64,000 nucleotides of DNA. Source: an uncultured delta proteobacterium. Lineage in GTDB: Bacteria > Desulfobacterota > Syntrophia > Syntrophales > Smithellaceae. The stretch lies in assembly GCA_963710995.1 (NCBI GenBank), contig CAVQCU010000056.1:432-64431 (forward strand). The letters run 5' to 3'. Shown here one piece after another: positions 803 to 23,237 of this stretch (position 1 is its first letter; each line of letters starts with the position of its first letter). A program made the position numbers and the translations under genes. A model generated the notes under the pieces. The model was not told where the DNA came from and did not search any database. It worked only from the letters and a program-made list of their open reading frames with translations.

Positions 803-825
803 GTTGAGGATTACTGGTTGAAAGG
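803..825 (+). repeat. Cassette-boundary module, diverged box1 only (copy M0)
   Basis: GTTGAGGATTACTGGTTGAAAGG resembles box1 (..TTTATTACGGATTGAAAG) and is nearly identical to 20644-20666. It lies just 3' of the IS110 transposase. Confidence 0.35.
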
Positions 826-848
826 TACAACGAATTGATTTCTCCATC

Positions 849-1062
849 TTATTCAAACTGATACCCTTTCTCCAGAAATAATCTCAGACAGGCATCCGCG
901 ACAGTATTATCGTAATGGGTTCTTTTATTTTTCTCGATCTCTTCAAGAGCTGCCTCAATATCCAAGGTTGGCCGATAGGAACGGTGGGAAGCCATGGCCT
1001 CCACAACGTCAGCGGCAGCCATAATTCGCGCCTCCAAGATAATTTCATCTCCCTTTAGGTTT
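849..1062 (-). pseudogene. HD-GYP/HD-domain protein, C-terminal remnant
   Basis: Only the last ~70 aa of an HD-type phosphohydrolase are present (EARIMAAADVVEAMASHRSYRP..EEALEEI..). The N-terminus is missing and the ORF overlaps the 3' end of the neighbouring Fe-S gene. Confidence 0.55.
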
Positions 1063-1938
1063 CTTAGTTTTCGGAATTGGAGTTTCACTAATAAAAGGCA
1101 GTTCCGACACGGCACTGATCCTATCTTTGATCTGCCTGATGAATTCCTCCTCGCCGGGAAAGGTCATCTTCACCGCGTCTACCGGGCATACCTCATGACA
1201 CCGGCCGCAGGCCTTGCAGTCATCAGTGATAATGGCTTTGCCGCTTTTCATCTCGATAGCCGAGACGAAGCATTTCTCAACGCAGATTTCACATCCGTCG
1301 CATTTTGCCTTATCGACTTCGACCGTAATACCTGGAAGTTTCTTATATGCGCCGTCAAGCGCCGGCCCTCGGCTTTTCATGTGCGTTCTATATAGACAAT
1401 TCACGTCGTCGCAGAAACAAATGAACATTAGTGGCTTGAACCTGACCCAGAAGGCGGTCATATCGATCCAGACATGAGCGATGTTCGCGATGAGTCCGAG
1501 CTTCGCGGCGCGCCTCACGTGCGCCACCGCCTCTGCTGTCGTTGCACTCCGTCCGTGCGAAGGGTGCATCCTCCTGATTGCGGGGCCAAGCACCATGCAT
1601 CCCAAATCCGCCGGTGGGTTGACCGACTTCTCGTGACGCCTGCAGATGCACTCACTGATTATGAATTTCTCTTCGACCTCAGACACTAGCCTTTCTAAGG
1701 TTCGAAGGGGAAGCGGGACACTCTTATTCGCAGGTATGCTCACGCCGATCGGAATCGAGGTGACTTCGTTATAAGGCCTCATGAAAAAAGGATTTATCAG
1801 CCATTTCAGGACAGGAACAGCACTCAGCTTCTTGCCATACTTGATTATGGGCCATGAGAGCCATACCATGATTCTGACCATTTTTCTGTTCGGGCCGAAT
1901 TTAAAAATATTTGCCAATGTGTATATCCTATTTTTCAA
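1045..1938 (-). CDS. 4Fe-4S dicluster domain protein with Cys-rich middle region, paralogue of 2216-3040
   Basis: Two CxxCxxCxxxC motifs (CDGCEICVEKC, CKACGRCHEVCP). Collinear similarity to the 274-aa ORF downstream, with a hydrophobic N-terminus. Confidence 0.75.
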   Translation of the reverse strand: MKNRIYTLANIFKFGPNRKMVRIMVWLSWPIIKYGKKLSAVPVLKWLINPFFMRPYNEVTSIPIGVSIPANKSVPLPLRTLERLVSEVEEKFIISECICRRHEKSVNPPADLGCMVLGPAIRRMHPSHGRSATTAEAVAHVRRAAKLGLIANIAHVWIDMTAFWVRFKPLMFICFCDDVNCLYRTHMKSRGPALDGAYKKLPGITVEVDKAKCDGCEICVEKCFVSAIEMKSGKAIITDDCKACGRCHEVCPVDAVKMTFPGEEEFIRQIKDRISAVSELPFISETPIPKTKKPKGR

Positions 1939-2200
1939 TTATCCCTTTTTTCAAAGCCAGCCACCATGTAAAGCCGAAGAGGATCGTCTTGATGAAGGCG
2001 GTACGTCCTGAGATACCTTTTCCGTCTGCTATTTTTTTTGATATGAGGGGAAATTCCAGGACATGAAGCGCTGCAAGGGCAATAAAAACAATCCACGCGA
2101 TCATCGATATGGACGGAACTAAAATCGCGGCGAGAAGTACCGCGACCCACAAACCAACCGCGCCAGCCATCAGGAAATACCAGAAACATTTTGAGTTCAT
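1928..2200 (-). CDS. Small integral membrane protein (3 predicted TM segments)
   Basis: 90-aa hydrophobic ORF packed between the two Fe-S paralogues. Its 3' end overlaps the next start by 11 nt. Confidence 0.55.
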   Translation of the reverse strand: MNSKCFWYFLMAGAVGLWVAVLLAAILVPSISMIAWIVFIALAALHVLEFPLISKKIADGKGISGRTAFIKTILFGFTWWLALKKGIIEK

Positions 2201-2215
2201 ATAAATCCTCTTGAA

Positions 2216-3040
2216 TTATTCAAAATTTATAAATGTTTTTATCCTGCCGTATATTTCATTCACCGCGCTTTCAACGCTTGCGATCTCGACACTGATCGCT
2301 TTCTCTTTGCAAACTGACGCGCATATCCCACAACCTTTGCATTTTTCCTGATCGTGAACTATCCGGCCGCAAGTAAGTTTTATGGCATCCATGAAACATT
2401 CGTCAATACATTTTCCACACTGTACGCATTTATCTTCAATGACGTCTATGGTCAGGCCTTCAAGCTTCACTATCGAGTCTGCGGCTTTTTCAGGCCAGTA
2501 TTTACCTGACTTGAGTATTGTGCAGCAGCATGTACAACAGTGGCAGAGCGTCAGAAGCTTTCCTCTGTCTTTCACTCCCCAGATGAAGTTGTCTATCCTG
2601 ACGCGACCCGTCTGCGGGATAAGGCCGTCTTCGAGTGTCTTGTGGAAATGTTCAATCGCTTCGTCAACTGAAACGTGCCTGGCTATCCGTGGGTCGATCT
2701 CTTTCGTCCCCTCGCCGAGGAGCGTGCATCCATATTCGATCGGATGATTCTTGCATCCGCAGGCGTCGCGGCACGTGCAGCGGTTGATTATGACCCTGTG
2801 TGAAGACTGTCTTACCAATACCTCAACCACCTTCTCCGGCAGGAAAGAAGATTCGGCTCCTTTTACTTCTTTATTTATGGGGATATAGCTGATGTTAAGG
2901 TTATTTCCTGAAAATAGCGGTGTCGTGACGACCGCGAGAAGTTTTCCTAAAACCGGAATTTTAGTCATCCTGGCGCTGGTCCAAGTTATCGGCCAGACAA
3001 CAGCAAGGAATTTAAGCCACCATGCGGGCCTTCTCGACAT
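2216..3040 (-). CDS. 4Fe-4S dicluster domain protein, paralogue of 1045-1938
   Basis: CVQCGKCIDEC and CKGCGICASVC ferredoxin motifs plus a shared Cys-rich core (CTCRDACGCKNHP..HCCTCCC). Confidence 0.75.
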   Translation of the reverse strand: MSRRPAWWLKFLAVVWPITWTSARMTKIPVLGKLLAVVTTPLFSGNNLNISYIPINKEVKGAESSFLPEKVVEVLVRQSSHRVIINRCTCRDACGCKNHPIEYGCTLLGEGTKEIDPRIARHVSVDEAIEHFHKTLEDGLIPQTGRVRIDNFIWGVKDRGKLLTLCHCCTCCCTILKSGKYWPEKAADSIVKLEGLTIDVIEDKCVQCGKCIDECFMDAIKLTCGRIVHDQEKCKGCGICASVCKEKAISVEIASVESAVNEIYGRIKTFINFE

Positions 3041-3127
3041 TGATTGTTCTCCTGATGCTGCTTTTGTTTCTTATATATGTTGATGCGCTTTGCCTGGCGC
3101 ACTAAGACATTGCTTTTCCATGCTTGA

Positions 3128-3156
3128 ACTATACGAATTTTGGTTTTGTATGTCAA
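3128..3156 (-). promoter_or_regulatory. Sigma70-type promoter inside module A, reading into 2216-3040
   Basis: Minus strand reads TTGACA-17 nt-TATAGT. Confidence 0.6.
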
Positions 3157-3280
3157 CAAAATATAGGTCGCAAAAATATAAGGTGTAGTGTCGATGCTTG
3201 CCGTTAAGAATGAATTGTGTTTATTACAGATTGAAAGAAAGTATATACGTGAAAAATCCTTAATGCTCGCTTACAGGAAG
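3128..3280 (+). repeat. Cassette-boundary module, full copy A (promoter part + box1 + linker + box2)
   Basis: Contains TTGTATGTCAA, GTGTCGATGCTTGCCG, GAATTGTGTTTATTACAGATTGAAAG, a 33-nt linker and TTACAGGAAGGAAGAAAG. Confidence 0.8.
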
Positions 3281-3432
3281 GAAGAAAGAAATAAAAAATT
3301 GGAGCGTAGCGATCGGCTGGATTGATTTGTTAAGAGGTTTTATGGAACAGAACAACTTCATTAAATAAAAACATAATTAACAATCTGTCAGGCCTCCAGA
3401 TTATCAAGACTGCTGCATGGCGAAAAAGGCAC

Positions 3433-3750
3433 TTATGTGATCATAGAGAATCCTACCTGAGTGATCTGGTCTTCCAGCTTCTTGATCCAGGACACTTTGG
3501 CTTTCACTATGGGGAGCTTGCCACATTTGCAAAGTACTTCCTGCCCCTGTTTGAAGCTTACTCCACCCACAAAAACGCCACAGCACCCCTTAAAACTTTC
3601 ATTTTGGCAAAGACCCACGCGCTGTTCCGTCTTCTTAGTACTCTCATCCAGATAATAAATAGTGACAAGCTCGTTCGGCTCAGCAGAATACCTAGTGTGT
3701 TTTCTATCTTTGTAACCGCTCATTGAAAACTCCCTCTGGTCTATTTCCAA
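3433..3750 (-). CDS. PilZ-domain protein (putative c-di-GMP receptor)
   Basis: RKHTRY (RxxxR-like) and NESFKGCCG (D/NxSxxG-like) motifs in a ~100-aa single-domain ORF. The start may instead be the internal ATG at 3723. Confidence 0.55.
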   Translation of the reverse strand: MEIDQREFSMSGYKDRKHTRYSAEPNELVTIYYLDESTKKTEQRVGLCQNESFKGCCGVFVGGVSFKQGQEVLCKCGKLPIVKAKVSWIKKLEDQITQVGFSMIT

Positions 3751-3823
3751 TCGAAAAGGACTTTCAATAAAATTTAATCTTCATAGGAAAATATTTGATA
3801 AGAGCTTGCTTTCACTGGAAGTG

Positions 3824-3852
3824 AGTGTAGTGTAGCCACGCATGTATGTCAA
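3824..3852 (-). promoter_or_regulatory. Sigma70-type promoter inside module B, reading into the PilZ gene
   Basis: Minus strand reads TTGACA-17 nt-TACACT. Confidence 0.55.
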
Positions 3853-3970
3853 GGAAATCTTGGCCACAAAATGTTAAGTATTAACGTTTGTCGTCGGGCG
3901 TAAATTGTGTTTATTACGGATTGAAAGCTTGCATCTTTGTCGAGATTGGCGTTTTGTTGATTACAGGAAG
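3824..3970 (+). repeat. Cassette-boundary module, full copy B
   Basis: Contains GTATGTCAA, TAAATTGTGTTTATTACGGATTGAAAG, a 33-nt linker and GATTACAGGAAGAAATGC. Confidence 0.8.
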
Positions 3971-4198
3971 AAATGCTTGCTGAGTTCCTACAAATACTCA
4001 ACTTTAGTACATTAATAAATTTGAGCATTATTGATCGAAAAGATGTAACGATTAATCAGTAACACGTGCAACTATTTTTGCAAAATCAATAAGTCGCCTT
4101 AATTAAAGGAGTGCCGGTCGGCTGACTGTAATCTATGGAAGTTTATTTTTTCTATTTCTGTTGACGGCAGAAAGAGCAGGCACATTCGCAATAGTCCT

Positions 4199-5341
4199 CT
4201 ACTCGAAGCCCATGATCTCATAAAGGCATTCACCTTCCAAAGGGATAACTTTGCCATGCTCGATGATGTTACCATTATATCTTGCAATGACCCGGAAATA
4301 GGTAGGCCTCGCAATAAACGTGCGAGCGACCCACTGGGAAAAGGGGTTCAATTCTGCTGTCGTGAGAAGGTCAACATCTTCTACCAAGGAATTGAACTGG
4401 ATGTGCAGGTGAGCCTCCACCTCTCCCTCGGCAAAATCAATACTGATCTGTCTCGGATAATGGCGCTTCAATACAGGGTGAGTGACGAAATCCCACTGGC
4501 GAATTGTAGGACTGCCTGTGCCTACGATAATTTTATCTCCCTTGGCAATATAAAGCGGCCTCGCCTTATTCATGGAAGGATCGATATAGTCAACGTCTGC
4601 GTAGATGATGGTATACTCGTTCGCGAAGATCCTTCCCCACACCCAGTGCCGCGTTATCTCGTTGAGTGGTTTCCTGCCCCAGTTGTGGTCGGCATATCCC
4701 ACTCCTTTTACATGCCGGGTATGCCCGTCCTGGGTTATGGTGCCCTCTATGCGGTTACGTGCCTGATGCACGCTCCAGAAAAAATCAAGGGAGTCTTCGT
4801 TGACTCTATCTGTACCGGCGGGCATCCATCCCGGTGCTATCATGGTAAATTTTAAATCTGCCACGATGCCTTCCATGTTCCACTGCACATGGTAATTCTT
4901 ATCGTCCATTCTTCGGACAAAACCCAAGGGGCAGGTAACATCCACATCCTCTGTTGAGGATTGCATCTCTTCGGTTTGAAGTGATTTTAGAATGGACCTT
5001 TTCTTCCAGTCCGGGCTGTAGAGCGAAAATGTGACCCCGGGTTTTCCGTTCGTAAAACTCGGGTGAAGGAATGCCCCCACAAAGGTCTCTCCAGTATCTA
5101 AATGTCCATCAAAGTACCACCACTCGAAGGGACGTTTGCCTGTGATCGTATGGCGGGCCCTGTCCTGAGCATTGGGTTGGTTCTTGCCCCAATTCAGATA
5201 CGCGTTGCTTTTGCCAATGCTCTCGGTGGGTCTAGGCAAAGAGGTGCAGGAAAGGGTTGCCAAGACCAGCAGTACGGCGAAAAAAATTGCTGGAAACATA
5301 TCTGGCGCGTGGCATTTTTTGATAAGATATTGCTTCTGCAT
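4199..5341 (-). CDS. CrtC/AttH-like (hydroxyneurosporene-synthase family) lipoprotein
   Basis: Signal peptide ending in a lipobox-like LATLSC. WEWWYFDGHL motif and beta-rich 380-aa body are typical of the CrtC/AttH lipocalin-like family. Confidence 0.65.
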   Translation of the reverse strand: MQKQYLIKKCHAPDMFPAIFFAVLLVLATLSCTSLPRPTESIGKSNAYLNWGKNQPNAQDRARHTITGKRPFEWWYFDGHLDTGETFVGAFLHPSFTNGKPGVTFSLYSPDWKKRSILKSLQTEEMQSSTEDVDVTCPLGFVRRMDDKNYHVQWNMEGIVADLKFTMIAPGWMPAGTDRVNEDSLDFFWSVHQARNRIEGTITQDGHTRHVKGVGYADHNWGRKPLNEITRHWVWGRIFANEYTIIYADVDYIDPSMNKARPLYIAKGDKIIVGTGSPTIRQWDFVTHPVLKRHYPRQISIDFAEGEVEAHLHIQFNSLVEDVDLLTTAELNPFSQWVARTFIARPTYFRVIARYNGNIIEHGKVIPLEGECLYEIMGFE

Positions 5342-5347
5342 GGATAA

Positions 5348-5376
5348 ATTATAGGAAGGCCTGTCTTGTATGTCAA
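5348..5376 (-). promoter_or_regulatory. Consensus sigma70 promoter placed for a leaderless mRNA of 4199-5341
   Basis: Minus strand reads TTGACA-17 nt-TATAAT-TTATCC-ATG. The start codon begins 7 nt after the -10 box. Confidence 0.65.
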
Positions 5377-5461
5377 GAAAATCTTGTGGTGTGAATGATG
5401 TTTATTACGGGTTGAAATCTAGCATATTTATTGAGGTTGATGATTTGTGGATTACAGGAAG
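5348..5461 (+). repeat. Cassette-boundary module, copy C
   Basis: Contains TTGTATGTCAAG, GAATGATGTTTATTACGGGTTGAAAT, a 33-nt linker and GGATTACAGGAAG. Confidence 0.8.
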
Positions 5462-5552
5462 TTATCGATAGCATGGTGGTCACTGATGCGGATAAGCATG
5501 TTGAGTGGTTTGTGTGGGCCGGGGGAAGAACCCCCGGCACCTGGAATAGCTT

Positions 5553-6071
5553 TTATTTCAGCCTTTCTTCCGACAATTGCAAATGGTCTGTTTCGATTTC
5601 CACTAATGCTTCAAAAAGCTGCTTTATCCGTTGATGATCCGATTCCATAGCCGACTTTTTATAGAATGCGATCGCCCTTGCTTCCCTTTCGTGGGACTCT
5701 TTTAAGTTCTCAACATTCTCAATGTGGCATGTCTCGCTTCCCGGAGGAACGGATCCCAGCTTGAGTATTTTTCTCCATATGGACGCGTGCTCCGCCTCAA
5801 TCTTGCCCAGCGCTTTGAACAAAATTTTCCCTTCAGGATCATTTGTTTTATCCGCAGCGCACGCATAAAATGTCGAATTGCTTATTTCCACCTTGAGAGC
5901 GTGTTCGACATTAGTTTTATCCTGGGTGCTGAGAGGAATATCAAAGTTCACTATAACCGCTTTTACCTCCATAATGTAACTCATGTGGGCACCGCAGAAA
6001 GGGCAGTTTGACGGAGGATTGGCGCCGATATACGCATCGCCGCAAATAATACATCTGTACAATTTAACCAT
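5553..6071 (-). CDS. Rubrerythrin-family protein with N-terminal rubredoxin-like Cys4 site
   Basis: N-terminal CIICG..CPFCG followed by a ferritin-like four-helix region (..EHAL..EAEHA..HEREA..ETDHL). Confidence 0.75.
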   Translation of the reverse strand: MVKLYRCIICGDAYIGANPPSNCPFCGAHMSYIMEVKAVIVNFDIPLSTQDKTNVEHALKVEISNSTFYACAADKTNDPEGKILFKALGKIEAEHASIWRKILKLGSVPPGSETCHIENVENLKESHEREARAIAFYKKSAMESDHQRIKQLFEALVEIETDHLQLSEERLK

Positions 6072-6101
6072 TTTTTCTCCTTTCAGAATCCTTCAATTTT
6101 T

Positions 6102-6662: not shown

Positions 6663-7178
6663 ATGAAAAAAATAATCATTATCTTTGTTTTATTAGTAGC
6701 AGGTTGCGTCAATGTACCGGAAAATATAACACCTGTTGATAATTTCAATATCGAGCGGTATCTGGGAAAGTGGTACGAAATAGCTCGGCTTGATCATTCC
6801 TTTGAACGGGGGCTCACGTCGGTTAGTGCTGAGTATAGCCTGCGGTCCGATGGAGGTTTGCGGGTTGTGAATCGAGGTTATTCTCAAAAGGAAAATAAGT
6901 GGAAAGAGATTGAAGGCAAGGGGTATTTCGTTGATCGTAAAGATCAGGGCTTTCTGAAAGTTTCTTTTTTCGGCCCTTTTTATGGATCGTATGTTGTCTT
7001 TGATCTGGATCGTGAGAATTATTCATACGCACTGGTATGTGGTCCAGATAAATCTTATCTATGGCTTTTGGCCCGCAACCCGAAAATAGATGATAATTTG
7101 AAAAAACGTCTGGTTGATAAAGCCGCCTATCTGGGATTTGACACGGACAAATTAATCTACGTACAGCATGATGACTAA
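6663..7178 (+). CDS. blc: Bacterial lipocalin (outer-membrane lipoprotein Blc)
   Basis: Lipobox LVAGC, then the signature NFNIERYLGKWYEIARLDHSFERG and ..LWLLARNP.. of Blc-type lipocalins. Confidence 0.9.
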   Translation: MKKIIIIFVLLVAGCVNVPENITPVDNFNIERYLGKWYEIARLDHSFERGLTSVSAEYSLRSDGGLRVVNRGYSQKENKWKEIEGKGYFVDRKDQGFLKVSFFGPFYGSYVVFDLDRENYSYALVCGPDKSYLWLLARNPKIDDNLKKRLVDKAAYLGFDTDKLIYVQHDD

Positions 7179-7182
7179 ATCA

Positions 7183-7243
7183 TTTATTACGGATGGAAAT
7201 CTAGTATATTCGACAAAGATAACGATTTATTTATTTCAGGAAG
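7183..7243 (+). repeat. Cassette-boundary module, core-only copy D
   Basis: Contains TTTATTACGGATGGAAAT, a 33-nt linker and TTTCAGGAAGAAAAT. Confidence 0.7.
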
Positions 7244-7293
7244 AAAATAATTATTTAGCTAATATTAAGTTTGTTATGAAAGTTAATATTAGC

Positions 7294-9000
7294 CTAACCC
7301 ACGTTAACGCTGTCCCACTTTCCTTTTTCGCGCAACTCCTTAATGATTTCCTCCGCCAGTTCTTTCAGTGCCAGTTTATCCACTTTTGTGCTTCTGGTTA
7401 GCGGCAGTAGTTTATCAGCAGGCCATATTTCCACATGCTGTGGCCTCTTGTAGGCCGCTATTGATTTACAGTAGTCCATTACAGCTTCCGGTGTAAGGGA
7501 AATACCAGCTACTGGACGCACAAAGGCAAAAATTCCTTCGTCAAATACACGGTGAGGCATGCCGACAACTTCTGCAACATCGACGCCTTCCATACTGACA
7601 ATAAATGACTCGATCTCATCGGGAAATACATTGTAGCCTTTCTGTTTTATCACGAACTTTCGCCGTCCGGAAAGGTAGAGTGCACGATAGCTTCCCATCT
7701 CCTTGAAATATCCGAGGTCCCCCGTGTACAGGATTCCCTCTTTTGAAATCGCCTTGGAGGTTTCCTCAGGTTGATTAAAATAACCCAGAAAAACGATGGG
7801 AGGATGATAGCATATTTCCCCTACTTCACCAACTGGTAGCTCTTCTCCTGCTGAACCGTCCTCTTTCATCGGACTGCGGATAGTAACCGGAGCAAGGTCC
7901 GGATAGGCCTGCCCGACCTGACCAGCCATCTCTTCAAGGGATATACCCTCAGGTGTGAATGTGGCAAATCCCGCATTCTCTGTCATACCGATGCCAGTGC
8001 CAAAACGTGGCGCCATTTTGGACAGCTTTTTAAGAAATTCAACGTCGACTGCAGACCCGGCATAAGCAACAAATTTAAGGCTTCCCAAATTATATTTAGC
8101 ATAGTTTTTATGAGCCCATAGCATCCGAAACTGTGTTGGAATCTGGCCGAGAGCATTAATACTCCATTTCTCAATGGCCTCCAAGGTAAGTGCAACATCA
8201 AAGACGCGAAGAAAAACTGATGTGCCTCCGCGATAAGTTGTTGTCATGAAAAGCTCAGTCACACAACCCACATGGCTTGGCGGGAGATTGATCAATACAC
8301 GCATATCCGATGAAAGGTTTGTTCCACGGGAAAGGATCTCGTTTTGCACGAGAATATTTTCATGACACAATACTGCCGGTTTAGGTTCACCGGTGGTACC
8401 TGTGGTATAAATGATAAGAGCCGGTGTGCGGGGGCCTATCTCTGCATAGACCCTTTCAAGCTTTCGAGTAAAAACATTCTTTATTTTAAGCCATAAGAGA
8501 CGTCCTTTGTTCATCAATTCGGTAATTGATATTGCTCCAGGAATTATATCACCTGGCTTCGGATCAGGTGTAAACTGGACAAGATGTTCCACATATGGAC
8601 AACGGTCACATACAGCCTCACCTATTTTTGTAAAATCTATGACAGAGGTCTTGCCAAGAAAAAAGAATGCCTTTGGTTTTATCTTGCCAAGATCGCGCAC
8701 AACCTCATCTTCCTTAAGGCGAAGATCCAAGGGGGCAATAATGGCTCCTATTTTAAAGCAGGCATACATGAAAATGATATGTTCAGGGATGAGTACAAGC
8801 TGTGTGGCGACGCGGTCACCTTTGCCTATACCCATATCAAGTAGCTTCAAAGCAAAAAAGTCAATGAGCGTCTTAAATTTACCGTACGTCACAATCTTCC
8901 CGTCTTCGTGCTGGATCATGGCTTCTCTATCCGGTACCTTTTGTGCCCAGTACTCGACGTAGTTGTTCAAAAGCGGCAACTTGACCATAACATCCTTCAT
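7294..9000 (-). CDS. AMP-dependent acyl-CoA synthetase/ligase
   Basis: AMP-binding motifs IIYTTGTTGEPKP and YTGDLGY. I moved the start to the ATG at 9000 to avoid overlapping the upstream MaoC gene. Confidence 0.85.
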   Translation of the reverse strand: MKDVMVKLPLLNNYVEYWAQKVPDREAMIQHEDGKIVTYGKFKTLIDFFALKLLDMGIGKGDRVATQLVLIPEHIIFMYACFKIGAIIAPLDLRLKEDEVVRDLGKIKPKAFFFLGKTSVIDFTKIGEAVCDRCPYVEHLVQFTPDPKPGDIIPGAISITELMNKGRLLWLKIKNVFTRKLERVYAEIGPRTPALIIYTTGTTGEPKPAVLCHENILVQNEILSRGTNLSSDMRVLINLPPSHVGCVTELFMTTTYRGGTSVFLRVFDVALTLEAIEKWSINALGQIPTQFRMLWAHKNYAKYNLGSLKFVAYAGSAVDVEFLKKLSKMAPRFGTGIGMTENAGFATFTPEGISLEEMAGQVGQAYPDLAPVTIRSPMKEDGSAGEELPVGEVGEICYHPPIVFLGYFNQPEETSKAISKEGILYTGDLGYFKEMGSYRALYLSGRRKFVIKQKGYNVFPDEIESFIVSMEGVDVAEVVGMPHRVFDEGIFAFVRPVAGISLTPEAVMDYCKSIAAYKRPQHVEIWPADKLLPLTRSTKVDKLALKELAEEIIKELREKGKWDSVNVG

Positions 9001-9043
9001 ATATTTCTCCCTGAATTGTTCTGGTACTTTGTATCTTCTGGCC

Positions 9044-9928
9044 TTAATCAGCGGAGAGACAACCGCTGCTAATAACTCGTTTCCCATCGATGTTGCATAC
9101 ATCGAACAACAAGTCTGTTGCGGTATTGTTTTTCCTTTTTTCAATCATACGGACAGAAATATTCGAACCGGGTAAAACCATACCGGTGAAACGGCAGGAA
9201 ACTGATTTGACCCTTGTTGGTTCTCGGTTGAGTTCTCTATTAACAAGTTCCGTAACGGCAAGGGCAAGGGTTGCGGTACCCTGCAGGATAATACCCGGAA
9301 GGCCTACCATGCGGGCAAATTTAATTGAAGTGTGAATGGGGAAAACAATATCAGTACAGCCATCATAAACAAATGGCATAAGCTTGTCTATTGATAAAGT
9401 GCTCGTCCAGCAGGGATCAACTGCATCACTGATATTCTGGACAATGGGAAGAGATTCCTTACCGGAGCCGCCACCGATACATTCAACACCGCGTAGCATA
9501 GCCCCTATATGTTCAGTAAATACCGGGGCTCCTTCTTTTTCCCGGGCAACAAGGCGGATTATGACATGAGTGCCAGCGCGATGTGGCAGTATCGCAACAA
9601 TTTGACCTTTAATGACAAGCTCAAGGCCTGGTGATAACGGCTGATGAATTTCCAGATGCTCTGTATAATGCACTTGAGAAAGTAACAGCTCCGTAGGAAA
9701 TTTTTCTGAAACAATAAATTCCTGAATCCGGCCTATGATGTTCCAGCTGATAGCTACAGGATAAAGAGGGTGTGCGATAATTCCATTAGAACTTTCATCA
9801 TCAAAATATCGTGGATTAGCGTCGCCAATCGCTGCTGAATAATTCATGATATCCCGCCAGTTCACTGAAGTTTCGTAATCCCGTAGATGTGTTCCGTTCA
9901 GCTCCGAGTTAAGGGTAGGTTTGTTCAT
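9044..9928 (-). CDS. MaoC-like double hot-dog (enoyl-CoA hydratase/dehydratase family) protein
   Basis: ~295 aa with two hot-dog halves (..YSAAIGDANPRYFDD.. and ..IVFPIHTSIKFARMVGLPGIILQGTATLA..). Confidence 0.7.
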   Translation of the reverse strand: MNKPTLNSELNGTHLRDYETSVNWRDIMNYSAAIGDANPRYFDDESSNGIIAHPLYPVAISWNIIGRIQEFIVSEKFPTELLLSQVHYTEHLEIHQPLSPGLELVIKGQIVAILPHRAGTHVIIRLVAREKEGAPVFTEHIGAMLRGVECIGGGSGKESLPIVQNISDAVDPCWTSTLSIDKLMPFVYDGCTDIVFPIHTSIKFARMVGLPGIILQGTATLALAVTELVNRELNREPTRVKSVSCRFTGMVLPGSNISVRMIEKRKNNTATDLLFDVCNIDGKRVISSGCLSAD

Positions 9929-10070: not shown

Positions 10071-10133
10071 GTGATTATTACGTGAAATAGTTTATTTTCG
10101 TAGAGGTTAACAATTTGTACAGTACATGAAGAA
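10071..10133 (+). repeat. Cassette-boundary module, degenerate copy E
   Basis: GTGATTATTACGTGAAAT..ACATGAAGAAACTG gives only partial matches to box1 and box2, at the expected inter-cassette position. Confidence 0.3.
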
Positions 10134-12320: not shown

Positions 12321-12349
12321 AGTATAAGGAAAACGCATTTGTATGTCAA
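12321..12349 (-). promoter_or_regulatory. Sigma70-type promoter inside module F, reading into 10765-12276
   Basis: Minus strand reads TTGACA-17 nt-TATACT, about 40 nt upstream of the AAGGAG RBS. Confidence 0.6.
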
Positions 12350-12420
12350 TGAAGAACGAGCCACAAAACGTGGAGTGAGGTGTCGACTACTGTCGAGCAT
12401 GTATAGTGTTTATTACGGAT

Positions 12421-13117
12421 GTATGCCGTGTAAAACGTATGACTAGTCGGTTAAAGTCCGACCATGGAGTTCGGTAGTTCGCCCATGTAGCTTGAGGGAG
12501 GTGTTAAGGGTAAACTGAAGCACTAAGTTCTCTGACAAAGGCTCCGTAAGAGAGTCGAGCAAACCTGCGGGTCGCAGCGTGAGCGAACCTAGATGTAGCC
12601 TCGAAACACACGATGGAGTTGTCGACCCCGTAATGGAAGGGGGAAGACCGGAGCATCTATCATAACGATAACTACCAGAACCGATAGATGGACTTCCGGG
12701 GTAACAGGGGTGACACGCAGGAGCAGCCATACGACAATGAACACGGGAGACCCTTGTCGATGCTGTGGAAGCGGCAACTGGTGGATATAAGGGAACGAAA
12801 TTTTACCGGGTCGATAAGGGAGTCGGAGTTGCTCATAGTACCGCTTGTATTCCAAGGACAACATAACCTTGGGAGAGGGAAGGGGCAATACCTTCATCAT
12901 GCTTCTAAAGGAGTGAAGGAAAGGAGATTGTGGTAACGCTATTAACTCTGAATATTTCGAGAACTCAGGTGGAAGCTATACTGGAAGGCCAAGTGAAAGC
13001 GAAAGCTTCTGGAAGAAGATGATTGGAAAGCCGTATTCGGGAAAACCGAACGTCCGGTTTGATGAGGGGGAGCTGGAGATAGAACCATTTGGCAACTACG
13101 CCAACTTTCTATTCTAC
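12421..13117 (+). mobile_element. ORF-less group II intron, copy 1 (~697 nt)
   Basis: Canonical domain V at 13028-13060 (AAGCCGTATTCGG-GAAA-ACCGAACGTCCGGTTT). A DVI-like region ends ..CTAC. Boundaries were inferred from uninterrupted modules. No reverse-transcriptase ORF is present. Confidence 0.75.
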
Positions 13118-13735
13118 TGTAAGAAAGCATACTTGACAATATTGATTTATTTGTTTCAGGAAGAAGTGCTTACTGAGTTTACGTACAAGTCCGCACATTT
13201 GCAATGAGATGGATATTAATGATTATGGAAAGAAAGGTTGAAAAACCAATTTGGAGTAAAGTATAGTTTAAGAGAATATAGTATTTCCACAACTGTCGCA
13301 CGTCTGTTCAAATCAACTTTTATCGTATCTAAAGGCATCCTCCAGAGAGCTTGTCATTTAATCGCCTCGCTAATTTGCAATAATGAACATCAATTGTCTG
13401 CCTGCTGTCAGGCACCGGAGGAAATATAGGAATAGCGAGATATTGCGGACGATGTCAATTAATTAGAAGTTTCTTACATTATTCTCATTCCATATAAAAC
13501 TGCCGCATGTACATCCCCAAGCAGTTTCCGTAAAGATGACCTTCCGCCATCAGACAAACACCGATGGCAATCCCGCCTTTTGCCTGAAGGCAGTTTCATC
13601 TTTTCCCCGACGAAAGAATCAGACGCAGACTGATTGTGGAAAAAAGCGATAGGGATTATATTACTCTCGAACAAGATGAAAAAAGAAATGGAGACAGTGC
13701 GTCTCCTATAATGACATGACATAAGGAGCAAGATT

Positions 13736-17857: not shown

Positions 17858-18614
17858 TATCATAGAGCTGATGATATGCGTCGCGGCGCGCGAACTCGGC
17901 AATGGCCACACAGCTGGAATCGGTACGGGAGCGCCTTGCGCCGCCGCTCTGCTGGCTCAGAAAACACTCGCGCCACATCTGGTGATTATGTTCGAATCAG
18001 GCGGTGTCGATCCCATTCTTCCCGAACTGCCGATTTCCGTCGGTGATTCCCGCACCTTCCACCGGGCCGTCATGGCCGGCAGCATGTTCGAGATCATGCA
18101 GACATGTAGTCGGGGAATGGTTGATTACGCGATTCTGGGCGGCGCCCAGATCGATATGTATGGGAATATAAACTCCACCATGCTGGGGAAAGATTACCTC
18201 AAGCCAGCGGTTCGTCTGCCGGGCAGCGGTGGTTCAAACGACTTTGCTTCCCTGTGCTGGCGCACGATCATCATGTCCGTACAGGAAAAAAAACGGCTGG
18301 TCAGCAAACTGGATTTCATTACAGCACCGGGATGGTTGGAAGGGGGAGACTCACGGGCGCAATCGGGATTGCCACTGGACACCGGACCTTATCGGGTCAT
18401 CACCAATATGGCCGTCATGGATTTCGAACCGGAAAGCAAATGGATGAGGGTCATATCCATCAATCCGGGCTATACGTTCGACGACATTCAGAGCAACTGT
18501 GAATTCGAATTGCTCAAGGCTCCCAGGATCTTTACCACTAAGCCCCCAACGGCGATGGAATTGAGAATCCTGCGGGATGAAATCGATCCGAACCGTCAAA
18601 TCATCGGCCGTTGA
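17844..18614 (+). CDS. CoA-transferase subunit B
   Basis: The FESGGV motif fits the catalytic Glu of family I transferases. The start overlaps the end of subunit A. Confidence 0.7.
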   Translation: MQNYNIIELMICVAARELGNGHTAGIGTGAPCAAALLAQKTLAPHLVIMFESGGVDPILPELPISVGDSRTFHRAVMAGSMFEIMQTCSRGMVDYAILGGAQIDMYGNINSTMLGKDYLKPAVRLPGSGGSNDFASLCWRTIIMSVQEKKRLVSKLDFITAPGWLEGGDSRAQSGLPLDTGPYRVITNMAVMDFEPESKWMRVISINPGYTFDDIQSNCEFELLKAPRIFTTKPPTAMELRILRDEIDPNRQIIGR

Positions 18615-18622
18615 GTTGCCGA

Positions 18623-19267
18623 TCACTCCACAAGCTTGTTCTGGACTGCGTACAGGGTGATTTCAGCGTTGTTTTTCATCTTCATTTTTTCCAAAATGTG
18701 GGTACGGTAGGTGCTGATGGTCTTCACGCTCAGGTTTAGGCTCTCGGCAATTTCCGAAACGGTCTTACCCGACGCAATCAGCCGCATGACTTGATGTTCC
18801 CGATCGGACAGAGTTTCATGGGGAGATTTCGTCATGTCCACATTGAGATAGGTGGCCAGTTTTTCTGCCAGGGATGCGCTGATGTAGCGCCCGCCTGCGG
18901 AAATTTTCCTAATGGCCGAAATCAGTTCGTGAGGCGCGCTTTCTTTTGTCAGATAACCTGCGGCACCGGCCTTCAATGCCCTGATGGCGTACTGTTCTTC
19001 GGGATAAATGCTGAGAATGAGAACGGGAAGTTTGGGATAGTCCGTTTTCAACTCCTTGAGAATTTCCAGGCCGTTTTTCCCGGGCATGGATATATCCAGG
19101 AGCACGACATCGTATTTTTTCTTTTTGAGGTGCTCGAGTACTTCCTGTCCGTTTCCCGCTTCATCCGCGACAACCAGATCCGGTGTTTCCGAAAGAACCT
19201 GTTTGAATCCGGCGCGGACAATGGGATGGTCGTCAGCAATGAGAATTCTGATCTTTTTTTCTGTCAT
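18623..19267 (-). CDS. NarL/FixJ-family response regulator (REC + LuxR HTH)
   Basis: ILIADDHPIVR..VLLDISMPG receiver region and a C-terminal LSDREHQVMRLIASGKTVSEIAESLNLSVKTISTYR. Confidence 0.9.
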   Translation of the reverse strand: MTEKKIRILIADDHPIVRAGFKQVLSETPDLVVADEAGNGQEVLEHLKKKKYDVVLLDISMPGKNGLEILKELKTDYPKLPVLILSIYPEEQYAIRALKAGAAGYLTKESAPHELISAIRKISAGGRYISASLAEKLATYLNVDMTKSPHETLSDREHQVMRLIASGKTVSEIAESLNLSVKTISTYRTHILEKMKMKNNAEITLYAVQNKLVE

Positions 19268-20394
19268 AATGTTTCTCCTGTCTTCCGCAAAGGAATGTTG
19301 ATCGTTATGGTAGTGCCTTTACCGATTTTTCCGACGATGGCCTCCCGGCCGCCCCAATGATAGACTCGTTCCTGAATACCCAGCAGACCGAACGAATCTG
19401 GCTTTCTCAACTGATGGTCCGCTATGCCCTTTCCGTTATCCTTGACAATAAATTTGAGGTGGTCATCCGTTGCCTTCAGGCGAACAGTCACTTTCGTGGC
19501 TTTGGCGTGACGCTGCACGTTTGTAAGTGTTTCCTGGAAAATACGAAATATGGTCGTAGTCAGATCCGGATCGATAGCCATATCTTCCGGGTTGAAGGAT
19601 ACGTTGCACGTAATGCCTGTCCGCCTGGAAAACTCATCGGCCTGCCAGGCGATGGCCGCCGTCAGTCCGAGATGATCTAGCATGCCGGGCCGCAACCCCA
19701 TATAAATCCTTTTAACGGTCTGCATGGACAGATCGACGAGGGAAGACATACTCTCCACTCTGTCCGATAGGATCTTCTGTTCCGCGGGGATCTTGTTTTT
19801 CAGCAGGATGAGATCCGTATTCAACGCCGTCAGTAGCTGTCCCAACTCATCGTGAAGCTCACGGGCGATGCGGGTTCTTTCCTTTTCGCGGATTGATTGA
19901 AGATGCGCCGATAATTGGCGCAGTTGATGTCGAGACAGTTCCAGTTCGCATGCGGCCCGCTTCCTGTCAGTAATATTTTCATAGGTGATGACCACCCGCC
20001 TCTCTTTCAATTGCTTGCCGATTCGAGCGGCGCGGATCATGCATTCGATCTCCATACCGTCCTTGCGCAGGCAGGGAAACTCCATGCTGGCGATGGGTTG
20101 CTTCTCCAGAATGGAATAAAGCTGACCGGCTATTCTTATGTAGTCCTTTTCAGTTCGATACAGCAGACGGGTAGTCCGGCCGATCAGTTCATTGGACGTC
20201 CAGCCAAATACGGTCTTTACGCCATCGTTGACAAAGATAATCCGTCGATCCTGAAGACCGATGACGGCGTGGGGTATGGCCTCCAAGATCGATGCTTCCA
20301 GAGCTTCCATCTCGGCGACCTTGTTGCGTGCCTGAATCAACTCCTTATTATCCATGTATTTTTTTGATTTTTTGATAAGGGATTGCTTTTTCAC
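19264..20394 (-). CDS. PAS sensor histidine kinase (HisKA_3 type)
   Basis: PAS region, then the ARELHDELGQ H-box and HATPase motifs. The 3' end overlaps the start of the response-regulator gene by 4 nt. Confidence 0.85.
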   Translation of the reverse strand: MKKQSLIKKSKKYMDNKELIQARNKVAEMEALEASILEAIPHAVIGLQDRRIIFVNDGVKTVFGWTSNELIGRTTRLLYRTEKDYIRIAGQLYSILEKQPIASMEFPCLRKDGMEIECMIRAARIGKQLKERRVVITYENITDRKRAACELELSRHQLRQLSAHLQSIREKERTRIARELHDELGQLLTALNTDLILLKNKIPAEQKILSDRVESMSSLVDLSMQTVKRIYMGLRPGMLDHLGLTAAIAWQADEFSRRTGITCNVSFNPEDMAIDPDLTTTIFRIFQETLTNVQRHAKATKVTVRLKATDDHLKFIVKDNGKGIADHQLRKPDSFGLLGIQERVYHWGGREAIVGKIGKGTTITINIPLRKTGETL

Positions 20395-20400
20395 GATGGG

Positions 20401-20429
20401 AGTATACGAAGAATGATTTTGCGTGTCAA
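20401..20429 (-). promoter_or_regulatory. Sigma70-type promoter placed for a leaderless kinase mRNA
   Basis: Minus strand reads TTGACA-17 nt-TATACT-CCCATC-GTG, where GTG is the ORF start at 20394. Confidence 0.55.
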
Positions 20430-20552
20430 GATGATTGTGACTGCAAAATAAGGGATGTGGTGTCGATGCTTGTCGTAGGGCGTGAATTGTGTTTGCTACA
20501 GATTAAAAGAAAGCATGTCCATGAAAAATCCTAAATACTCACTTGCAGGAAG
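20401..20552 (+). repeat. Cassette-boundary module, full copy G
   Basis: Contains GCGTGTCAAG, GTGTCGATGCTTGTCG, GAATTGTGTTTGCTACAGATTAAAAG, a linker and CTTGCAGGAAGTAAGAAAT. The linker is close to those of copies A and K. Confidence 0.8.
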
Positions 20553-20643
20553 TAAGAAATAAAATTCGACTAAAAATATTTTATCCGAACTTTAAAAATT
20601 AAAGATTGTATCTACAAAGTTTCAGTAGAGAGCGGTTGTCAGA

Positions 20644-20666
20644 GTTGAGGATTACCATTTAAAAGG
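20644..20666 (+). repeat. Cassette-boundary module, diverged box1 only (copy G')
   Basis: GTTGAGGATTACCATTTAAAAGG is nearly identical to 803-825. Confidence 0.35.
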
Positions 20667-20792
20667 TGGCATCCGAAATCGATTATGAGCAAAGGAGAGA
20701 CCCCTTTGTCCTTCCTGTTGCTCATATTCCATTGAATAGTAATTAACGAGAATATTTAATTCTTTCAAAATCTGGATTTTCTCGATCCCTTA

Positions 20793-21134
20793 TTAGTTCT
20801 CTTGTTTCATGCATGATTTCAAGTTACCATCGATAAAGAAAAAAATCAGAGCATCTGCTTTGCATATACTCTTGGATATGGTAACCTCTGCATTAAGCAT
20901 ACAAGATTCTAATTTACCGTTGCTATAAAAACTTATAGGGCCACCATTTTTACATGTAATGTTATTCGCATCGTAATTATCTTTGAGTTGGCAAGCTTTT
21001 AGTGACCCGTCGTCATAAAGAACAACTTTTGAATCAGTACTACAAATTGATTGGTCAGCGGCGTATACATTGAAACTAATCAATACTGATGTTAATAGTA
21101 AACTCTGGAAAAACAAATTCTTTATAATTTTCAT
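20793..21134 (-). CDS. Small secreted Cys-rich repeat protein (MORN-variant/YwqK-like repeats)
   Basis: Signal peptide, then three repeats ending in Cys (YDDGSLKAC, YSNGKLESC, IDGNLKSC). The gene is AT-rich. Confidence 0.5.
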   Translation of the reverse strand: MKIIKNLFFQSLLLTSVLISFNVYAADQSICSTDSKVVLYDDGSLKACQLKDNYDANNITCKNGGPISFYSNGKLESCMLNAEVTISKSICKADALIFFFIDGNLKSCMKQEN

Positions 21135-21277
21135 AAAATATTGTCTCCTTTAGCTGTTGACCTTAATTCATCCTGACTCAATTGTTACGTTTTAAGTCGA
21201 TTGATAATTTTTCCTCTGGTTATTGACCTACCCCAAATAATTGTACCACATATTAAGTTAGAGTTCAGCCACTTTTT

Positions 21278-21339
21278 GTTGATTACAATTTGAAACGTTG
21301 TATGAATTGAGAAAATAAGAAAATCAATCTTACAGGAAG
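21278..21339 (+). repeat. Cassette-boundary module, core copy H (abuts the IS3 left inverted repeat)
   Basis: Contains GTTGATTACAATTTGAAAC, a 33-nt linker and CTTACAGGAAGAAAGAAAG. Confidence 0.65.
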
Positions 21340-21374
21340 AAAGAAAGATTTTTGCTAACGTAATTGAATTTTGT

Positions 21375-21740
21375 TTAAATCAACCATGAAGCCGGGGACA
21401 GGGAATCAAGACCAATGACCTTTCTCGCCTTATTGCACGTAGGATTGTGATGTCCGGTTTTCCATGAAGGCTCGAAATCCCGGCAGACGGATGGGCGATG
21501 GTCATAAATCGTGCATTGCACTTTCCGCCCCGGTTCTCCGCAAAGAGCAATGCATCTTCGCTCTTGAGGGCTTGTCCAACACATAGCTCTACGAAAATTA
21601 TCAACCTTCATAGTTTTACTGACAGGAACACCTCCTTCCAAAACATCATCCGCTTCTGCCCAATAAAAGGATACTCGAAAATTAATGCAACACGCTCCGC
21701 AATCAAGGCAATGATTGAATCCGGCTATTTTATCGTCCAT
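21375..21740 (-). CDS. YkgJ-family (UPF0153) cysteine-cluster protein
   Basis: CLDCGACCINFRVSFYW plus a downstream Cys cluster (CIALCGEPG..C) are characteristic of the YkgJ Zn/Fe-chelating family. Confidence 0.7.
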   Translation of the reverse strand: MDDKIAGFNHCLDCGACCINFRVSFYWAEADDVLEGGVPVSKTMKVDNFRRAMCWTSPQERRCIALCGEPGRKVQCTIYDHRPSVCRDFEPSWKTGHHNPTCNKARKVIGLDSLSPASWLI

Positions 21741-21785
21741 AGAGTCGATTCCTCAGTTTCTTCGGTTTTTGGAATTAAGGAATAC

Positions 21786-21850
21786 TGTTTGTAACCTAGC
21801 ATAAAATTAAAAATAAAAGAACTGTGGACTTCAGCTTACTATAAGGAAGA
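21786..21850 (+). repeat. Cassette-boundary module, variant copy I
   Basis: Contains CTGTTTGTAACCTAGCATAAAATT..CTTACTATAAGGAAGAAAT. Its first 26 nt are identical to copy J. Confidence 0.6.
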
Positions 21851-21882
21851 AATAAAATTTCAATTTCCAAACCAAGATCTTT

Positions 21883-21999
21883 TATACCTTGAAAGAAGCG
21901 AAGACGCTGATTGAAAAATGGCGCATGGAAAACAACACGTTCAAGCCGCACAGTTCTTTGAATTACCGCTCTCCAGCGCCAGAGGCGTACCTGAATTGA
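21883..21999 (+). pseudogene. IS3-family transposase, C-terminal remnant
   Basis: Translates to YTLKEAKTLIEKWRMENNTFKPHSSLNYRSPAPEAYLN*, the conserved tail of IS3 OrfB (rve) proteins. Confidence 0.75.
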
Positions 22000-22147
22000 G
22001 AAATAAAAAGTGGCTGAACTCTAACTTAATATGTGGTACAACTATTTGGTGCAGGTCAAATTATGTAGGGGGATACTAGCCCTAATGATTTTGATATGGG
22101 GAATGTCAGCTTAAACTCTTAAATCCGGGGACACCCTGAGGAGAACC

Positions 22148-23089
22148 ATGAAAAAACAAACTAAAGTAGCCGCAATTCAACTTGCCACAAAAGTAGGGGA
22201 TTCAACCGCGAATATCGCCAGCTGTCAGCGTTTATCATTACTGGTGGTCCATGAGGGCGCGCGCTGGATCGCGTTGCCGGAGTTCTTCACTACGGGAGTC
22301 AGTTGGAATCCGAGCATTGTCGAAGCCATTCAGACCACTGACGGCACGGCGGCAAGTTTCTTGCGTGACTTTTCCGCAAAGCATCAAGTGGTGTTGGGAG
22401 GCTCATTCTTATGCAGGCTTTCCGATGGCAGTGTACGCAACCGCTACTTGTGTTATGCGAACGGCACTCTTGTTGGCAAGCACGACAAAGACCTTCCTAC
22501 GATGTGGGAAAATTATTTCTATGAAGGCAGTGACCCGATCGACAGCGGTATGCTCGGGACCTACGACAACACGCGTATCGGCGCGGCCGTCTGTTGGGAG
22601 TTCATGCGCACGATGACCGCACGTCGGCTCCGCAATCAGGTGGATGTGATCATGGGCGGTTCGTGCTGGTGGAGCATACCCACCAATTACCCTGGCTGGC
22701 TCCAGAGACTCTGGGAGCCGGAAAACATTCGCAACGCCCTTGCCGCCATACAGGATAGTGCCCGTCTCATCGGTGCGCCGGTCATCCATGCCGCGCATTG
22801 CGGCGAGATTGAGTGCCCAATGCCGGGGTTGCCGATCATCAAATACCGGGGTTTTTTTGAGGGTAACGCGGCTATTGTGGATGCGAACGGCCATGTGCTG
22901 GCGCATCGTAGTGCCAAACAAGGCGAAGGAATCGTTTGTGCAGAGGTTTCGTTGGGCGCACAAGCGACTACCGAAGAAATCCCCAATCGTTACTGGCTAC
23001 GCAACAGAGGTCTTCTGCCCACTCTTGCATGGCATCATCACCGTTGGTTGGGGCGGCACTGGTATGCACGTAACGTGCGTCAGGCATAA
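22148..23089 (+). CDS. Carbon-nitrogen hydrolase (nitrilase superfamily) protein
   Basis: E-K-C triad context (WIALPEFF, GKHDKDLP, AAVCWEF). By eye it is markedly more GC-rich than its flanks. Confidence 0.8.
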   Translation: MKKQTKVAAIQLATKVGDSTANIASCQRLSLLVVHEGARWIALPEFFTTGVSWNPSIVEAIQTTDGTAASFLRDFSAKHQVVLGGSFLCRLSDGSVRNRYLCYANGTLVGKHDKDLPTMWENYFYEGSDPIDSGMLGTYDNTRIGAAVCWEFMRTMTARRLRNQVDVIMGGSCWWSIPTNYPGWLQRLWEPENIRNALAAIQDSARLIGAPVIHAAHCGEIECPMPGLPIIKYRGFFEGNAAIVDANGHVLAHRSAKQGEGIVCAEVSLGAQATTEEIPNRYWLRNRGLLPTLAWHHHRWLGRHWYARNVRQA

Positions 23090-23184
23090 AAACTTGCGTT
23101 ACACCATCTGAGCATCCCAATAGCGGATTTATGCAATGAAAGTTTATATGTATCCTTGCTAATAGACCCAATACCAACGATTAC

Positions 23185-23237
23185 TGTTTGTAACCTAGCA
23201 TAAAATTGCAGATTTGAAAAATAAGGATTTCAGGAAG
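23185..23237 (+). repeat. Cassette-boundary module, variant copy J
   Basis: Contains CTGTTTGTAACCTAGCATAAAATT..GATTTCAGGAAGTAAGAAAT. Confidence 0.6.

Follow-up and report, generated by a model that had tools for sequence, protein, structure and literature searches.

A lineage-wide intergenic repeat of Syntrophales and its possible role as a joint between portable gene units

Closest described systems

E. coli BIME/REP, Neisseria NIME/dRS3 and pneumococcal BOX elements are modular repeats that occur in many intergenic copies, are tied to rearrangement joints and are targeted by IS110-family elements. In integron arrays (attC arrays and CALINs), short repeats of the same orientation part unrelated units, which are reassorted with joints inside the repeat, and the repeat is a target of group II introns. 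Another arrangement is found in Acinetobacter plasmids, where pdif modules lie between 28-bp XerC/XerD sites that are two-fold symmetric about a 6-bp spacer and whose orientation alternates; the enzymes acting on them are presumed to be Xer proteins that the host encodes elsewhere. Here, we describe a repeat of ~76 nt, hereafter the module, from a stretch of 64,000 nucleotides (the window) of an uncultured bacterium of the Smithellaceae (contig CAVQCU010000056.1, positions 432 to 64,431 of the forward strand). The module is an undescribed, lineage-wide, unstructured and strand-specific intergenic repeat, and literature searches returned no description of it or of a relevant Smithella or Syntrophus repeat. 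The reading that we favour, tentatively and at somewhat less than an even chance, is that it serves as a joint for the excision, exchange and rejoining of gene units that carry their own promoters.

The mosaic intergenic repeats (BIME, NIME/dRS3 and BOX) appear to be its nearest analogues in kind, and integron arrays and pdif modules appear to come closest in behaviour. Like the mosaic repeats, the module occurs in many copies outside genes and has short conserved motifs that bound variable units; unlike them, it has no palindrome or hairpin (the ~35-nt REP/BIME palindrome with its stable stem-loop is absent), is oriented strictly against the flanking genes, carries two direct ATTAC sites and belongs to Syntrophales. 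No RAYT (TnpA_REP) gene was found among the window open reading frames (ORFs) scanned. With integron arrays, the module shares the common orientation of the repeats, the unrelated units between them, their reassortment with joints inside the repeat, and the role of group II intron target. However, neither IntI nor attI accompanies it; attC, an imperfect palindrome, recombines in hairpin form, whereas the module consists of unfolded direct repeats; integron cassettes are mostly promoterless and run from Pc, whereas the module-bounded units have promoters of their own; and integron cassettes form one contiguous array, whereas copies of the module lie genome-wide. As in pdif modules, discrete gene modules between short conserved sites change context with no dedicated recombinase adjacent, but the ATTAC sites lack two-fold symmetry and share a single orientation. 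The module further differs from miniature inverted-repeat transposable elements (MITEs) by the lack of terminal inverted repeats and target-site duplications, from IS200/IS605-type PATE (insertion 3' of TTAC) by the lack of stable subterminal hairpins, a 6-bp stem being limited to one type of linker (a-type), and from intrinsic terminators by the lack of a G+C-rich hairpin. Reused or 'mobile' promoters are also known in prokaryotes (PMC3575422). A comparable promoter, P1 (TTGACATACAA-N17-TATAnT plus the first codons), precedes unrelated genes here, but the module is separable from it, and the promoter stays with its gene while the module changes.

The module and its copies in the window

The module is composed of box1, a 33-nt linker and box2. 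The box1 site (ATTAC-nGnTTGAAAG) and the box2 site (ATTAC-AGGAAGWAAG) are direct copies of one asymmetric site, and the two ATTAC motifs are spaced 47 nt apart rather than the ~54 bp given in the initial annotation of the window, which was made from the sequence alone. A third arm combination, in which the left arm of box2 is joined to the right arm of box1 (GAATTGAGG-ATTAC-nnnTTGAAAG), accounts for 69 copies in the loci. Conservation is concentrated in ATTAC-nG-a-TTGAAA, in the G.AT that opens the linker and in TTaCAGGAAG, and the same stretches are conserved in 70 copies that were not picked by the search pattern. The linker sorts into a few interchangeable subfamilies (a-, b- and c-type among the window copies), and the gene strand of the module contains 22% C and 12% G, variable linker included. 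Copies from the same genome have a median identity of only ~60%, yet the boxes are still conserved across related genomes. That the boxes are kept while linker and flanks change around them speaks for a protein that recognises them.

Copies were detected with an nhmmer profile that was built on copies from other genomes and run on the window and on fetched loci. In the window it gave 10 matches, of which 7 are intact plus-strand copies, 1 is a plus-strand 3' half and 2 are on the minus strand. Both boxes recur much more often than chance allows, with no match to either in any of 100 shuffles, and a repeat finder recovers the same families (D3, D6, D7, D8 and D12), so that the composite repeat noticed initially is real. 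Beyond the profile matches, the window holds two degenerate copies, visible by eye or as repeat D15 but under the profile threshold, and three partial hybrid copies. The 'partial' copies listed initially at 803 and 20644 are not truncated modules and instead represent the related hybrid box of a second repeat family. The copies are as follows:

3207-3291, plus strand: module with b-type linker (box1 3210-3237, box2 3271-3288; profile match 3213-3287)
3897-3977, plus strand: module with c-type linker (repeat finder; profile match 3903-3977)
5388-5471, plus strand: module with c-type linker (repeat finder; profile match 5395-5471)
7170-7250, plus strand: promoter-free module between convergent genes, lipocalin (6663-7178, plus) and AMP-ligase (7294-9144, minus) (profile match 7179-7248)
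10071-10133, plus strand: degenerate module, seen by eye
12392-12420, plus strand: 5' half of a module, box1 up to ...ATTACGGAT, split off by a group II intron
12421-13117, plus strand: group II intron without ORF, within box1 (Rfam RF02003, RF00029)
13118-13172, plus strand: 3' half of the same module (TGtAAG, linker, box2; profile match 13121-13172)
20479-20563, plus strand: module with b-type linker, 80% identity to 3173-3291 (D7; profile match 20493-20561)
21272-21350, plus strand: module with a-type linker, preceded by an F2 element at 21223-21280 (profile match 21272-21346)
21786-21850, plus strand: degenerate module whose box2 carries an insertion (D15)
23172-23247, plus strand: module between convergent genes, C-N hydrolase (plus) and radical SAM (minus) (profile match 23172-23247)
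31891-31960, minus strand: inverted module, upstream of a plus-strand promoter at 31973-32001 (profile match 31891-31949)
54504-54562, minus strand: inverted module, 3' half (linker and box2; I4; profile match 54504-54562)
54563-55262, minus strand: second group II intron without ORF, 96% identity to the first, same box1 point (I1)
55263-55298, minus strand: inverted module, 5' half (box1; I7)

Both introns, which are 96% alike and contain no ORF, are inserted between ...TTTATTACGGAT and TGAAAG of box1 and in the module's own orientation. The module is thus a group II intron target, as had been proposed, and in having two intron copies at the same point (between ATTACGGAT and TGAAAG) and in the same orientation it resembles an intron homing site.

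Distribution, position and orientation

Genomes, one per species, were scanned with the pattern ATTACNGNTKGAAAN{30,40}TTWCAGGAAG. At least 114 stretches matched, nearly all from metagenome-assembled genomes (MAGs) of Smithella, Smithellaceae, Syntrophaceae and other Syntrophales. The few matches in unrelated taxa appear to be due to chance or to misbinned contigs, and three single matches in Syntrophorhabdales are indistinguishable from chance. In the fetched loci, the profile detected 213 copies over ~0.85 Mb, with a maximum of 7 per 8 kb. Copies lie on many contigs of the Smithella sp. SPRUCE 522 MAG and also at 0.18, 0.68 and 1.84 Mb of one 2.78-Mb contig. Segments of SPRUCE 522 and of a Syntrophaceae MAG from a fen match the window at 92-96% identity.

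Only 4 of 174 copies fall inside an ORF, which bears out the initial view that the module marks the boundaries of gene units. It sits between transcription units, with box1 toward the promoter of the next unit and box2 toward the 3' end of the previous one. In gaps between genes of the same direction, 87 copies are oriented against the genes and 6 with them. Because divergent (23 copies) and convergent gaps (17 copies) are also occupied, the module is not simply part of a promoter or a terminator. Modules are absent from the tightly packed operons at 13.7-18.6 kb, and the inter-module segments hold unrelated genes (Fe-S proteins, CrtC-like, rubrerythrin, lipocalin, acyl-CoA enzymes, CoA transferases, a two-component system and C-N hydrolase), as gene annotation confirmed. 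An N-type ATPase operon at 39079-46587 (AtpR, ATPase gene 1, a, b, alpha, beta and epsilon subunits) contains no module either. Pfam scans covered ~60 window ORFs, and a test for neighbour enrichment covered 739 ORFs of module-bearing loci. A tie to one gene family was considered and rejected: PAS/histidine-kinase genes form the largest group near modules, yet a module lies in the 400 nt upstream of just 11 of the 23, and such genes are common anyway.

Rearrangement joints

Between related genomes, gene order breaks at modules and breakpoints lie inside them, and the cassette idea of the initial annotation has outlived the grounds for refutation that were set out with it. When the window is compared with SPRUCE 522, 92-94% homology spans the gene, its promoter and box1 up to ATTGAAA. 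Past box1, the linker belongs to another subfamily, box2 matches (as it does everywhere), and then the sequence and the neighbouring gene differ. The CrtC-like unit of 1.22 kb (window 5386-4167) is 92-93% identical in three other assemblies. The four genomes set its ends within a few bases of each other, each in a different context. Blocks common to different module-bearing genomes at 92-98% identity extend over only 1.2-2.1 kb, and each corresponds to a promoter with its gene or genes. As a control, orthologous regions of module-free relatives hold gene order over more than 10 kb at 87-91% identity; gene order is lost only in module-carrying lineages. Consecutive segments of contig L027 map to three SPRUCE 522 contigs. 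In L027, L081 and L055, joints fall exactly at ATTAC, with either arm exchanged: at one joint, the left side is identical and the right arm reads AGGAAG... versus CATTTGTAAG..., and at a second joint the situation is reversed. Among 27 unique block ends between genomes, 7 lie within 3 nt of a site's ATTAC and 11 within 25 nt of a site, where 0.33 and 2.4, respectively, are expected from random positions. Block ends fall in the two boxes, most frequently at the box2 ATTAC, and the 69 copies of the hybrid box, with its box2 left arm and box1 right arm, also speak for joints inside the module. Cassette-like behaviour is supported.

If same-orientation modules recombine, whole units would be exchanged or excised with their polarity kept, and it is this that would give the region its integron-like look. 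The boxes may be read, as double-stranded DNA, by a protein encoded elsewhere in the genome, as their conservation suggests, and the exchange could be made by this protein or by crossing-over within the 15-28-nt boxes. The data are compatible with crossing-over in the boxes and also with a dedicated enzyme at ATTAC. The more far-reaching proposal, that the ATTAC motifs are crossover sites of an undescribed site-specific system, encoded away from its sites and moving promoter-carrying units around and between Syntrophales genomes, is doubtful.

Several observations weigh against a role as a recombination joint. At its upstream end, the CrtC-like unit varies by as much as ~60 nt, and further block ends fall just past stop codons. 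Other joint points exist: immediately before CACCTAC and immediately after AGGAAGAAA in a within-genome duplicate, and immediately after TTGAA in the case of a 141-nt indel. A pair of modules is 97% identical between unrelated flanks (L077 +539 and L018 +314), which shows that copying can affect the module as a 76-nt whole. Among the module-selected loci, one doubtful case aside, none had an empty A-arm/Y-arm junction. No recombinase was found in the window beyond an 88-aa fragment, and none is enriched among the 739 neighbouring ORFs. The figures themselves also call for caution: the comparison loci (~0.85 Mb of fetched DNA) were chosen for carrying modules, the random-position baseline for the 27 block ends ignores the general preference of such ends for intergenic DNA, and, because an alignment always continues as far as a conserved box does, a joint given as 'at ATTAC' looks more precise than it is and can be placed only somewhere in the box.

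In a different explanation, the module is a selfish small repeat (compare MITE, REP and BOX) that spreads as a ~76-nt whole and has no host function, and its numerous copies cause the reshuffling incidentally, through ordinary or illegitimate recombination with one another. In the 97% identical pair, the copied segment is the whole module (L077 and L018), and a 141-nt composite flanked by A(A/T)TGAA is present in one and absent from the other of two genomes; the high copy number, the mosaic flanks and the targeting by IS110-family elements and group II introns, as in REP and attC sites, point the same way. However, alignments reveal no terminal inverted repeats, the flanks of near-identical copies carry no target duplication, and there is no hairpin. 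Moreover, ~60% median identity together with boxes conserved across related genomes speaks for selection or recognition by a protein and not for neutral decay, and the joint between L027 and L081 shares only ~12-14 nt, a stretch that is short for RecA-dependent exchange. On this evidence, a purely selfish repeat is rather unlikely. A 47-nt unit inserting into an empty site, between GTGTTTATTAC and AGGAAG, was likewise rejected, since the module-selected loci contain no such site bar one doubtful case.

Absence of structure and of an integrase

The module does not fold. Over 164 copies, the mean folding z is ~-0.25 on both strands; as single-stranded DNA, a check envisaged from the start, six window copies gave z values of -0.1 to +1.5 on both strands. 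RNAalifold found 0 consensus pairs in 45 copies, Rfam gave no match to the module even at E values up to 5, and a terminator scan placed no intrinsic terminator on modules. Mutual information tracks the linker subfamilies and not Watson-Crick partners. Together, the folding, RNAalifold, mutual-information and Rfam results rule out that the module is an attC-like hairpin, a REP palindrome, an intrinsic terminator or a structured RNA. A hairpin across the linker was rejected as well, the 6-bp stem TGTTGT/ACAACA being confined to the a-type linker and the overall z being ~0. Two further candidates failed: a CRISPR-like mini-array, to which the GATTGAAAG at the end of box1 had pointed through its likeness to a repeat handle, because the linkers form recurrent subfamilies, the direct repeat is ~15 nt long and there are no cas genes, and a small peptide, for which the frame is open in a single linker type.

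It follows that a structured small RNA or cis-regulatory RNA encoded by the module is very improbable. Conserved ends around a variable middle would suit such an RNA, as would the stem in the a-type linker, but there is no Rfam match, the mean z of -0.25 over 164 copies is close to zero, RNAalifold pairs nothing in 45 copies, and mutual information sorts with the linker subfamilies.

The initial annotation saw in the region the layout of a sedentary integron, and an integrase-less attC cluster with divergent attC would be a variant of this idea. Same-orientation modules do part unrelated genes over 23 kb, and the group II intron sits in the repeat in the repeat's orientation. Nonetheless, membership of the integrons is rejected because four tested features fail, namely intI, a folding attC, promoterless cassettes and a single array. 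As noted initially, there is no intI in the window: Pfam scans gave only an 88-aa C-terminal fragment of a PF00589 tyrosine recombinase (53815-54081), which lies 30 kb away, apparently beside a tRNA remnant, and the array ends carry no integrase. Box1 and box2 are direct repeats without a fold (z -0.1 to +1.5, 0 consensus pairs), the units own strong promoters, and copies are genome-wide on many contigs. An integron, even a highly divergent one, is thus extremely improbable.

From a reading of the sequence, the recombinase fragment is followed by a tRNA-like 3' part (53815-54140 for the two together), and the pair is probably the scar of an integrated element. Just upstream (~53695-53745), an 11-nt unit, GACTTACAAGC, is repeated four times.

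Promoters beside the module and the boundary explanation

The box1 side carries one of three promoter families (P1, F2 and F3) in 66 of 164 copies, and in about half of the copies the flanks are unique. P1 is present on the gene strand in 33 of 164 copies, at 10, 27, 40 or 62 nt from ATTAC, and F2 in 23 of 164, at a fixed 10-12 nt from the module; F3 accounts for 10 of 164. By reading of the sequence, F2 appears to be an extended -10 promoter on the gene strand (TGGTACAAT in the window copy), and F3 is likewise read as an extended -10 promoter (TGCTATTAT). The P1 promoters of the window are the following:

3128-3156, minus strand: P1 promoter TTGACA-17-TATAGT, part of the gene unit and not of the module
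3824-3852, 5348-5376, 12321-12349 and 20401-20429, minus strand: P1 beside modules, similar to 3128-3156
31973-32001, plus strand: P1 beside a module, similar to 3128-3156
35022-35051, plus strand: P1 without a module (promoter scan)

The six module-adjacent TTGACATACAA-N17-TATAnT sites are the best sigma-70 matches of the region (10-12 of 12 positions). The initial annotation had given six copies both an extension and a promoter; the promoter is indeed found at six, whereas the extension GTGTCGATGCTTGCCG is found in only about three (3128, 12321 and 20401). It had also considered a mobile promoter-bearing repeat, an idea that is only partly right, since it is the gene that the promoter moves with and not the module. 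Indeed, the core is separable from the promoter, with a module alone at 7170-7250 and P1 alone at 35022-35051. A promoter on the module's own strand (with TTGAAA as -35), sigma-54 or sigma-32 promoters and an IHF site were also considered; on reading, none had a consistent second element.

Some features of the promoters themselves may be added. At 3103-3162, 5323-5382 and 20376-20435, an ATG or GTG lies 6 nt past the P1 -10, from which leaderless mRNAs are predicted, and the first codons have M-x-K-Q-x-L in common. At 3121-3071, the start codons of P1 form a 16-codon upstream ORF and not a gene start. The conserved F2 element (TTGTACCACATGTTAAGTTAGAGTTCAGCC) is found at 21223-21280, 22002-22059 (inverted) and 55383-55410.

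The position of the module beside promoters bears on the possibility that it is an expression boundary or insulator, in which an unstructured gene-strand stretch with C in excess of G would load Rho or bind a protein and stop read-through ahead of the following promoter; the joints would then coincide with modules merely because all non-coding joints lie between units. This explanation gains from the strict orientation (87 versus 6), from the placement between transcription units and never in the packed operons at 13.7-18.6 kb, from the absence of folding on either strand (z zero or positive), from the 22% C versus 12% G of the gene strand, which extends even to the linker, and from the location immediately upstream of three different promoter families. 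However, Rho-loading sites do not need 10-15-mers that are 90% conserved, the same gene and promoter lack the module in L116 and L117 and can hence dispense with it, the distance to the promoter is not fixed (10, 27, 40 or 62 nt), nothing lies upstream to terminate in the 23 divergent gaps, and ATTAC joints with either arm exchanged are left unexplained. Boundary function is therefore unlikely on its own, but it is a serious rival and could coexist with a role as joint. Candidate mechanisms thus comprise a site-specific enzyme, crossovers in short boxes, and a protein-binding or Rho-type boundary.

Significance

On the plainest reading, the module is a new, highly abundant repeat family, a lineage marker and a target of IS110-family elements and group II introns. 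It may also point to a way of exchanging cassettes that requires no integron integrase and no folding of the site. Alkanes and fatty acids in peat, sediments and digesters are degraded by syntrophs among which Smithella and its relatives hold a key place. Should the module act as a recombination joint, the genomes of these bacteria would be built from portable single-operon units, which would account for the scant gene order shared by MAGs with 92-98% identical genes and would affect binning, pangenome analysis and metabolic inference. Should an undescribed ATTAC recombination system exist, it would parallel the integron on a genome-wide scale and act on unstructured double-stranded sites.

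Other repeats and insertions

A second repeat family, CACCTAC...GTCAGAATTGAGGATTAC..., ends in the hybrid box mentioned above. It can be written CACCTAC-(~25 nt)-GTCAGAATTGAGGATTACnnnTTGAAAGGTGCA, is abundant and intergenic, usually lies ~100 nt beyond box2 and often adjoins a terminator-like hairpin. An IS110-family element adjoins it in the window, in agreement with the initial annotation:

47-742, within window 1-779: IS110-family transposase (Pfam scan)
780-830, plus strand: second repeat, ending in the hybrid box GTTGAGG-ATTAC-TGGTTGAAAG, abutted by the right end of the IS110-family element between cac and ctac
20620-20680, plus strand: second repeat (CTACAAAGTTTCAGTAGAGAGCGGTTGTCAGAGTTGAGGATTACCATTTAAAAGG), with an inverted copy at 23458-23499

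In L024 and L088, from another MAG, an inserted element, possibly an insertion sequence, lies at the same point of the second repeat. Together with the IS110-family end, these insertions make CACCTAC look like an insertion hot spot. An 87% relative of the group II intron, at 6783-7362 of L096 from another Smithella-type MAG, sits at a different repeat beside CCTAC of the second family, and its sequence reads as though it continued into a reverse-transcriptase frame.

A third repeat (AATGAGACCCAAGCTTCAGAAAC...GAATTATCCC) dominates the module-poor part of the window. It occurs at 28046-28104, 30293-30329, 32258-32290, 44870-44928 and 48340-48372, with inverted copies at 26445-26469 and 27314-27342, and also at 200-350 of L116. 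One copy lies within the N-ATPase operon, and in L116 the repeat takes the place of the module upstream of the CrtC-like unit.

Elsewhere in the window, a tRNA-Sec gene (30163-30253) adjoins a TusA/DsrE-like gene and an IS4-type (DDE) transposase (30636-31697). Two overlapping ORFs at 32417-33636, both T2SSE (type II/IV secretion ATPase), are probably a frameshifted gene or a sequencing error. Three tandem repeats of ~429 nt (65-72% identity) at 48735-49986 correspond to PAS domains of one protein, and a fourth such copy (35506-35797) is found in a histidine kinase at 35297-37441.

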